Position numbers and translations under genes: made by a program
The notes under the pieces: generated by a model
The model's input: only the letters and a program-made list of their open reading frames with translations
What the model was told of the DNA's origin: nothing
The model's database searches: none
DNA from: Octopus vulgaris
Taxonomy: Eukaryota
DNA: 64,000 nt
Assembly (NCBI GenBank): GCA_951406725.2
Contig: OX597814.1
Span: forward strand, 105,090,001-105,154,000
Direction: 5' to 3'
In this document: positions 25,256 through 25,879 of the stretch, in pieces
Position numbering within the stretch: the stretch's first letter is position 1
Layout: every line of letters starts with the position of its first letter

Positions 25256-25879
25256 ATATAAGAGAGTTAACGTTAAGTGGTTAACTCTAGTGCTAGAAAT
25301 AGCTCCTTATTCTGGTATAGCCACCGAAGTTGTTTCCACAGAAGAAATAACATTACCTTCAACGTAAGGGAAGCGAAATACAACGAAAAGATAGATTAAT
25401 GCTGAACAATTGTTTCTTTATCAACATAATATGCAATTATACTCACATATTTGTCTATAAATCATCGGTAGCATTTGTTCTCGATGCAATTTATCAGACC
25501 CTCACAGGCGATAAATACCCCTGCGGTCTGATCGATTGCATACATAGTTGTGGTTTAGCCTCCCGCCAAAAGCATGCTAAGACTCAGTGGAAACCAATAC
25601 CGCATACAATATTTGCTGCAGCATATTTAATTTATAAATTCATAAATGAGGGTGAAAAATTACATATTAATTTAATAATACCGTCAGTTTAGCACCAAGT
25701 GGCCTAGCACATAAAAAACCAGGGAGACAGTACAAATTTATACATAAATATAAGAGAGTTAACGTTAAATGGTTAACTCTAGTGCTAGAAATAGCTCCTT
25801 ATTCTGGTATAGCCACCGAAGTTGTTTCCACAGAAGAAATAACATTACCTTCAACGTATGTATGCGGTATTGGTTTCCA
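25256..25879 (-). mobile_element. Penelope pLTR/retrozyme-like element with 111-bp direct repeat and hammerhead
   Basis: Direct repeat 25256-25366 / 25748-25858; 21-bp inverted copy 25588-25608 / 25859-25879; hammerhead fold at 25398-25475 (-). Confidence 0.6.
25398..25475 (-). ncRNA. Type I hammerhead-like motif (CCGAUGA core, long stem II)
   Basis: AATGCTA|CCGATGA|TTTAT...AATATG..CATATT...ATAAA|GAAAC-AATT-GTT|CAGCATT. Confidence 0.6.

Follow-up and report, generated by a model that had tools for sequence, protein, structure and literature searches.

The closest described relatives of the insertion reported here are the non-LTR retrozymes of metazoans, dispersed, low-G+C, self-paired and non-coding units with a type I hammerhead and a circular or tandem map, many of whose copies are inactive and which have been proposed to be non-autonomous derivatives of Penelope-like elements (PLEs). 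In the accessible parts of the literature, the tested invertebrate and axolotl units measure 170-400 nt (PMC7229834), and a preprint gives retrozyme units of 51-972 nt, derives retrozymes from PLE terminal repeats, and finds them mostly inactive in vitro, with one of nine cleaving (Li, Clavereau and Pollet, 2026; bioRxiv 10.64898/2026.07.22.740005). For PLEs, a partial tandem with an adjacent inverted and 5'-truncated copy is the stated footprint of insertion (accessible sections of PMC8557442 and PMC3846280), and head-to-head is reported as the most frequent polarity (PMC3846280, same sections). A PLE protein in purified form makes cuts on both strands of AT-rich DNA and initiates within the RNA, at a point downstream of the hammerhead; it is also active when the ribozyme is dead, so that cleavage is dispensable (PMC11167929, accessible part). 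Our literature search, to which most subscription papers were closed, found no description of a retrozyme in cephalopods; it led to the Naiad paper and to a squid genome paper that gives 235 hammerhead matches but no context, and the main text of a 2026 octopus repeat annotation mentions no hammerhead, ribozyme or retrozyme.

We analysed a 64-kb window of Octopus vulgaris DNA (the whole stretch of 64,000 nt), which is animal DNA with many microsatellites and LINE pieces. By analogy with published elements, we consider it likely that an insert at 25256-25879 is a retroelement with a hammerhead but no enzymes of its own, akin to animal non-LTR retrozymes and other Penelope-derived elements; its family most likely falls among the known ribozyme-bearing parasites of Penelope-type retrotransposons. 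The 111-nt direct repeat noted in the preliminary description was recovered at 25256-25366 and 25748-25858 (minus strand), with a spacing of 492 nt and one mismatch (G at 25277, A at 25769), and can be extended 5 nt leftwards to 116 nt at the cost of one further mismatch. The letter at 25769 is the derived one, the copy-1 letter holding 88-95% of the depth of other copies. This spacing delimits a full non-coding unit at 25256-25747 (minus strand), which is strongly self-paired (minus-strand fold z = -5.69; none of 100 shuffles as good). Repeat copy 1 contains the 3' end of the insert in the RNA sense, a putative start of reverse transcription lying 149 nt downstream of the predicted hammerhead cut. 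Repeat copy 2 is an extra 0.23 unit, 5'-truncated at 25858, and the total copied length of the forward part is 603 nt (1.23 units). Exactly at the outer junction, as had also been noted, stands a 21-nt inverted piece (25859-25879, plus strand), the exact reverse complement of 25588-25608 within the unit (minus strand); it is a 5' inversion, placed head-to-head with the main copy, and its inner joint has no shared letters. No perfect inverted repeat of 21 nt arose in 500 dinucleotide shuffles of the 624-nt insert, where the maximum was 18 nt.

Like metazoan non-LTR retrozymes, the unit is small, low in G+C (35%) and non-coding: its six frames are all closed, with a longest stop-free run of 113 aa. 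Its 492 nt exceed the 170-400 nt of the tested units but lie within the 51-972 nt of the preprint, and its hammerhead differs by a very long helix II, as judged from the accessible parts of both sources. An ORF with reverse transcriptase and GIY-YIG endonuclease, the mark of an autonomous PLE, is absent from 25256-25879, and the 64-kb window holds no second copy of the unit.

Other copies were read from contigs of four public runs (X1, X3, X5 and X10) with two organism labels, aligned at 82% likeness; the best public run contains 48% of the sampled words, and organisms C and D 27% and 25%. Thirty-two contig pieces of 7699 were listed, 27 of them on the element. X5 and X10 come from one study and an RNA origin for them is a guess, so they are uninformative on expression; among the public runs containing the sequence, none is recorded as RNA. 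Many diverged contigs lie along the unit in all four runs, as in a multi-copy, dispersed family. The preliminary description had read the repeat as a monomer of about 490 nt copied about 1.2 times from a circular or tandem RNA with a template switch, and had proposed to look in other copies for circular permutations or tandem arrays. Both internal junctions are indeed bridged there, with at least 31 nt on each side: among the matches listed, 25366/25367 is continuous in 7 of the 27 element pieces and 25747/25748 in 4 of the 27 (three runs each). The family thus neither lacks this continuity nor presents a one-off local duplication. Three X10 pieces (25274-25492, 25463-25682 and 25669-25795) overlap round the entire 492-nt unit. 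In the family, then, the 111 nt come directly after 25747 as well as directly before 25367, which makes the family map circular or tandem, two arrangements that these short contigs fit alike. Metazoan non-LTR retrozymes are organised as head-to-tail arrays of at least two units, each with a hammerhead; this locus has 1.23 units, and both junctions are bridged in other copies, but among the matches listed there is no full dimer and no contig with two hammerheads, and no listed piece covers the whole stretch. The reading as a monomer copied about 1.2 times is thus supported, and the template switch calls for nothing more than the ordinary 5' inversion of Penelope-like insertions.

The bridging of 25747/25748 also weighs on a different history, in which a single unit was inserted first and the 111-nt repeat, the 21-nt inversion, the filler described below and the deletion all came from later repair of a DNA break by copying nearby sequence, as in polymerase-theta-type templated insertion. 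A short inverted templated piece taken from 250 nt back, with filler and target loss at one junction, is what such repair would leave, and the direct repeats are 99% alike though this copy stands at least 3.7% from the family majority. A local duplication does not predict, however, that the sequence following 25747 in other copies should be the repeat itself (4 of the 27 listed pieces), nor that two other loci should carry inversions of the same polarity. We regard this history as improbable for the insert as a whole; repair may account for the 21-nt piece and the filler alone.

Coverage along the unit is uneven: 25633-25777 is several-fold deeper in summed depth than the hammerhead half, and the best-covered pieces over 25747/25748 are about 85-90% alike, two of them diverging at 25798. 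An X10 contig of 523 nt shares only 25564-25798 with the unit and then runs on for 255 nt unlike it, as might be seen in a sister subfamily or where an autonomous element ends. The circular tiling may accordingly mix related subfamilies. Taken further, the same observations would suit a reading in which the unit belongs to the terminal repeat of an autonomous PLE. The 1.23 units would then be two 5'-truncated cDNAs from the same start, and the circular tiling would arise from several related families being mixed; among PLE remnants, solo terminal fragments are the most common (PMC4209133, accessible part). Re-initiation, however, would make 25747/25748 private to this locus, yet it is bridged in three runs; only 1-3% of the aligned contig sequence runs on unlike the stretch, and no reading frame begins past the hammerhead. 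We find this very improbable and retain the retrozyme-type unit.

A hammerhead had been reported at 25398-25475 on the minus strand. An independent relaxed pattern recovered the motif, of type I, but it is not intact in this copy and has no Rfam match. On the minus strand, helix I is formed by 25475-25469 and 25404-25398, the core stretch lies at 25468-25462, and a long helix II leads to GAAA at 25416-25413; helix III has 2 bp closed by a palindromic loop, with the predicted cut between 25405 and 25404. The relaxed pattern gave no match in 2000 shuffled units and four in the whole window (the insert's own, 60096-60174 on the plus strand, 55091-55013 on the minus strand, and a weak one at 59629). 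The hammerhead stretch folds better than shuffles on the minus strand (z = -2.59, against -0.42 on the plus strand). Rfam returned no hammerhead in the window at the gathering score, and chance-level matches only at E up to 10 on two sub-stretches. The exact motif had no match in the metagenome and viral contigs scanned; matches to a 21-nt motif at 16 metagenome loci were set aside as chance, the alignment never extending beyond 41 nt. The long helix II, the short palindromic helix III and an insert end some way downstream of the hammerhead are all likenesses to PLEs, and a short helix III with a palindromic loop, a dimer-type design, is described for animal type I and PLE hammerheads (PMC4209133, accessible part). 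The palindrome here can self-pair as a duplex (-6.4 kcal/mol, computed). Helix II has no G-C closing pair, a pair called highly conserved in PLE hammerheads (same part of PMC4209133).

Two lesions mark the hammerhead of this copy, one at 25467 (core CCGAUGA instead of CUGAUGA) and one at 25469 (an A-C mismatch at the base of helix I). The canonical letters prevail in other copies: in the four runs that of the core at 25467 holds 80, 91, 100 and 100% of the depth, and the pairing letter at 25469, which gives a full 7-bp helix I, 96, 100, 100 and 100%. These letters point to a type I hammerhead with a conserved core at the level of the family, apparently lost in this copy. A U4 change in the hammerhead core lowers cleavage; our literature search found no paper on its effect. 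The altered core letter is found in other copies too, where it accounts for 20% of the depth in X1 and 9% in X3. At no fewer than 14 of the 381 non-repeated places, a letter other than that of this copy holds two thirds of the depth in at least three runs, which puts the copy at least 3.7% from the majority; of 36 variant places listed on the element, 21 were entered, the 15 omitted being dominant in at most two runs. From the single mismatch between the repeats, 1.7 changes are expected since insertion (95% range 0.04-9.5; P = 0.10 at the upper rate). Because 14 differences stand against 1.7 expected and the altered core letter is found in other copies, the ribozyme of the source unit was probably already damaged before insertion, an estimate that depends on one mismatch. 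An A-to-I edited template was rejected as the origin of the differences, G>A and C>T being about equal in all four runs, with no strand bias. Contig stops at 25400-25409 in X5 and X10 were likewise rejected as evidence of cleavage: among the matches listed, 5 of the 27 element pieces cross the predicted cut, and sequence variants explain the stops.

Directly 5' of the hammerhead in the RNA sense lies a long conserved hairpin (25484-25541, minus strand), equalled by none of 200 shuffles on either strand. The hairpin pointed out in the preliminary description is thus real, but the CAGG/CCTG helix given as part of it is peculiar to this copy: two of its four pairs are altered in most of the depth of other copies, which forms a longer, register-shifted helix on the minus strand. 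When the six majority letters are applied, the fold changes from -29.2 to -30.5 kcal/mol on the minus strand and from -25.5 to -20.1 on the plus strand, because the new pairs are G-U pairs on the minus strand only. This shift argues that the hairpin has been kept as a structure of minus-strand RNA. Neither inspection by eye nor Rfam matched a SECIS or other named motif in it, and no comparable upstream hairpin accompanies the two other hammerheads of the window (z = -0.26 and 1.10). A second hairpin, of 9 bp with an A/C-rich 8-nt loop (25263-25288, minus strand; fold z = -4.50, 0 of 200 shuffles), is separated by 7 nt from the insert's 3' end, and we can only guess at a role in initiating reverse transcription.

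Likeness to published elements is our ground for supposing transcription, cleavage and reverse transcription, a PLE as the source of the enzyme, and the following order of events. A tandem array of the 492-nt unit would have been transcribed from the minus strand, and the reverse transcriptase with GIY-YIG endonuclease of an autonomous PLE would have cut an AT-rich TATAT site in an old LINE copy of presumed RTE type. Synthesis of the cDNA would have started inside the RNA, at position 25256, which is 149 nt downstream of the predicted cut and 7 nt away from the 9-bp hairpin; it would then have passed the cut site and ended after 603 nt (1.23 units). The other broken end would then have been joined in one of two ways that the sequence accommodates equally: through a 21-nt second cDNA primed further up the same RNA (twin priming), or through a fold-back of the new cDNA onto itself, 250 nt up the strand. 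Closure would have added 19 nt of filler and lost target DNA in place of a target-site duplication (TSD). Because the predicted cut site was read through, the template would not have been a cleaved linear monomer and was presumably an uncut tandem RNA or a circle. We lean towards an uncut tandem transcript as the probable template, in the direction of which the likely earlier damage to the source ribozyme also points, and treat a religated circle as a serious but less favoured possibility. The 64-kb window yielded no autonomous PLE whose terminal repeat matches the unit.

The anatomy resembles that of PLEs with a C-terminal GIY-YIG domain and pseudo-LTR hammerheads in its partial tandem, head-to-head 5' inversion, AT-rich target and optional TSD (accessible parts of PMC8557442, PMC3846280 and PMC11167929), and a partial tandem in a non-LTR element without TSD has a precedent (PMC3846280, in part). 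It differs from PLEs in that the insert has no ORF and no 30-40 nt tail was identified, and from canonical PLE inversions, as far as their accessible descriptions go, in that the outer ends lie 332 nt from each other in the unit, at 25256 and 25588, and not at one start of reverse transcription with or without the optional 30-40 nt tail. In the order and orientation of its inverted and forward parts, which fit a second primer further up the RNA, the locus is like twin-primed 5'-inverted L1 insertions, but unlike them it has no poly(A), no TSD, no microhomology at the inner joint and a gap of about 240 nt between the parts (PMC2912911, accessible part).

The family has made such inversions elsewhere. 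Two further strand-changing joints occur within the unit, 25406/25625 (one contig each in X1 and X3) and 25555/25799 (one contig in X5), and both are head-to-head, with RNA 5' ends meeting, in the polarity of this locus; a partial tandem or head-to-head inverted, 5'-truncated arrangement of the PLE type is thus found here and at two other loci. The 25406/25625 joint can slide by two letters to fall exactly on the predicted cut, a weak hint that some templates may have been cut. Measured from the forward break, the start of the inverted piece lies 242, 219 and 244 nt ahead in the three inversions, near half of the 492-nt unit; three uniform offsets would all fall within 25 nt of the half-unit by chance about 1% of the time (post hoc, n = 3). 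The joints were also tried as paired points of a rod-like fold and rejected as such, the position sums modulo 492 being different (298, 355 and 186) and the predicted partners mismatched. Inversions of this kind differ from what the accessible parts of PMC7229834 and bioRxiv 10.64898/2026.07.22.740005 describe for metazoan non-LTR retrozymes, where they go unmentioned; the locus further departs from that group in bearing a single, mutated hammerhead.

On its left side the insert abuts the 3' end of a LINE (24850-25256, minus strand), comprising the last 131 codons, stop codons and a short TGA-type tail, and broken just before the YGSETW motif. Aligned with residues 913-1042 of a 1043-aa protein that carries PF03372, PF14529 and PF00078, the fragment shows 76% identity (153 matches among 297 candidates in the protein search). 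What had been called an RTE fragment is therefore confirmed as the 3' part of a LINE encoding endonuclease and reverse transcriptase; its RTE type is our presumption, from the YGSETW motif and a single ORF of about 1045 aa. Other LINE copies continue past 25256, reading TVEPILL on the minus strand (loose ends in 34 X3 contigs and 5 X10 contigs). LINE and unit meet within TATAT; they have one letter in common at the join, and of 9 letters spanning it 8 are alike. On the right, the inverted piece is followed by a 19-nt filler (25880-25898) and then by a very high-copy short repeat (25899-25990; summed contig depth 17,000 to 1.2 million), mapped at its left end, which we take to be SINE-like. The best match of the filler within the element is not significant, and its derivation from a diverged piece of the unit was rejected, 317 of 3000 shuffles doing equally well. 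The usual left-hand part of the repeat at 25899 is missing here, loose ends preceding 25899 in all four runs, and no TSD surrounds either the insert or the composite of LINE and insert, from which we conclude that target DNA was lost. An X3 contig joining 25256 to 25900, with a shorter side of 25 nt, was rejected as an empty site, both flanks being very abundant.

The exact abutment at 25256 on the same strand, with the one shared letter and the likeness across the join, invites a reading in which the reverse transcriptase of an RTE-type LINE first copied the LINE's own RNA, 407 nt inwards from the tail; at the short A/T-rich likeness it then jumped to a hammerhead RNA, circular or tandem, of which it copied 1.23 units before twin priming closed the insert and left a chimera of LINE and retrozyme. 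It would also explain why the upstream part of the LINE is missing on the right side of the insert, and one 8-mer of the filler recurs, inverted, in the LINE sequence found past 25256 in other copies (chance about 0.8%, uncorrected, about seven sources having been tried); twin priming and template jumping are both described for non-LTR elements (PMC2912911, in part). Set against this, 0 of the 32 pieces listed bridge the LINE-unit join, nor does any of them span a junction of the inverted piece, and at 25256 the loose ends among the matches listed continue as ordinary LINE sequence. RTE-mobilised SINE/LINE chimeras should show a recurrent join to the 3' part of a LINE and a TSD round the whole insert; the join is absent from those 32 pieces, though rare chimeras are possible, and the composite has no TSD. 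A deletion is required anyway by the right-hand repeat that lacks its usual end, and the family has undergone such inversions at other loci as well. Hammerhead repeats are also present in TA tracts of this genome where there is no LINE, and 5'-truncated LINE pieces are very abundant as targets, their summed depth being 30 to 100 times that of the unit. We judge the chimera unlikely; the LINE fragment is more likely the target of insertion than a partner in template switching, and a switch from RTE RNA is possible but less likely.

A narrower version of the jump deserves mention for what it would imply. Had a LINE reverse transcriptase, in the course of synthesis, captured a ribozyme RNA in circular form and so produced the insert, with inversions reflecting the geometry of the circle, LINE capture would be a second mobilising route for the circles of animal retrozymes, and the inversions would furnish a DNA signature separating circles from tandems; we hold this to be rather doubtful, a shade more so than the chimera in general. 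If instead the retrozyme or Penelope-derived reading holds, the locus adds a retrozyme-type family from a cephalopod genome. We did not find the family of the 492-nt unit described in the literature, but the insert, itself well preserved, is of an already known type and illustrates a published model and not a new system. One young insert would here combine a PLE-type inversion with a cDNA that started internally and passed the cut site, in a unit of retrozyme size whose source ribozyme was probably damaged. Such a combination fits both the proposed dependence of retrozymes on PLE enzymes and the dispensability of cleavage in vitro.

Several other features of the window were recorded. At 53018-53215 (plus strand) lies a GIY-YIG-like coding fragment, a weak Atlas lead (0.90-0.91) with no Pfam match and no protein homologue, and about 400 nt past it a decayed hammerhead-like stretch (53630-53695, plus strand) that starts CCGATGA and weakly resembles the hammerhead of the insert (1 of 100 shuffles; one of 16 comparisons). 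The region 53018-53695 is possibly the remnant of a Penelope-like partner. The hammerheads at 60096-60174 (plus strand) and 55091-55013 (minus strand) belong to a second family, intact-looking, of type I and mutually alike over about 150 nt; they share the palindromic helix III of the insert's hammerhead, and the former sits in a piece of about 230 nt between TA tracts. A further small hammerhead-like motif was seen by eye at about 56926-56972 (plus strand; core CTGAAGA, GAAAC, palindromic AACGTT), adjoining a CAA tract and outside the relaxed pattern.

Beside TA tracts, a 122-nt inverted repeat (59290-59411 and 59732-59853, 91% complementary, 320 nt apart) resembles a small non-autonomous DNA transposon. 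Further LINE-family pieces lie at 10686-13238, 18026-19042, 35246-36670 (plus strand) and 61573-63046 (minus strand), with one C-terminal region common to three. Two intron-less EF-hand ORFs (about 9000-9563 and 15905-16468, both plus strand) are presumably calcineurin B-like copies, and two intron-less cysteine-rich ORFs (3649-4302 and 28916-29863, both plus strand) encode what we take to be secreted proteins like those of the CAP/SCP family.
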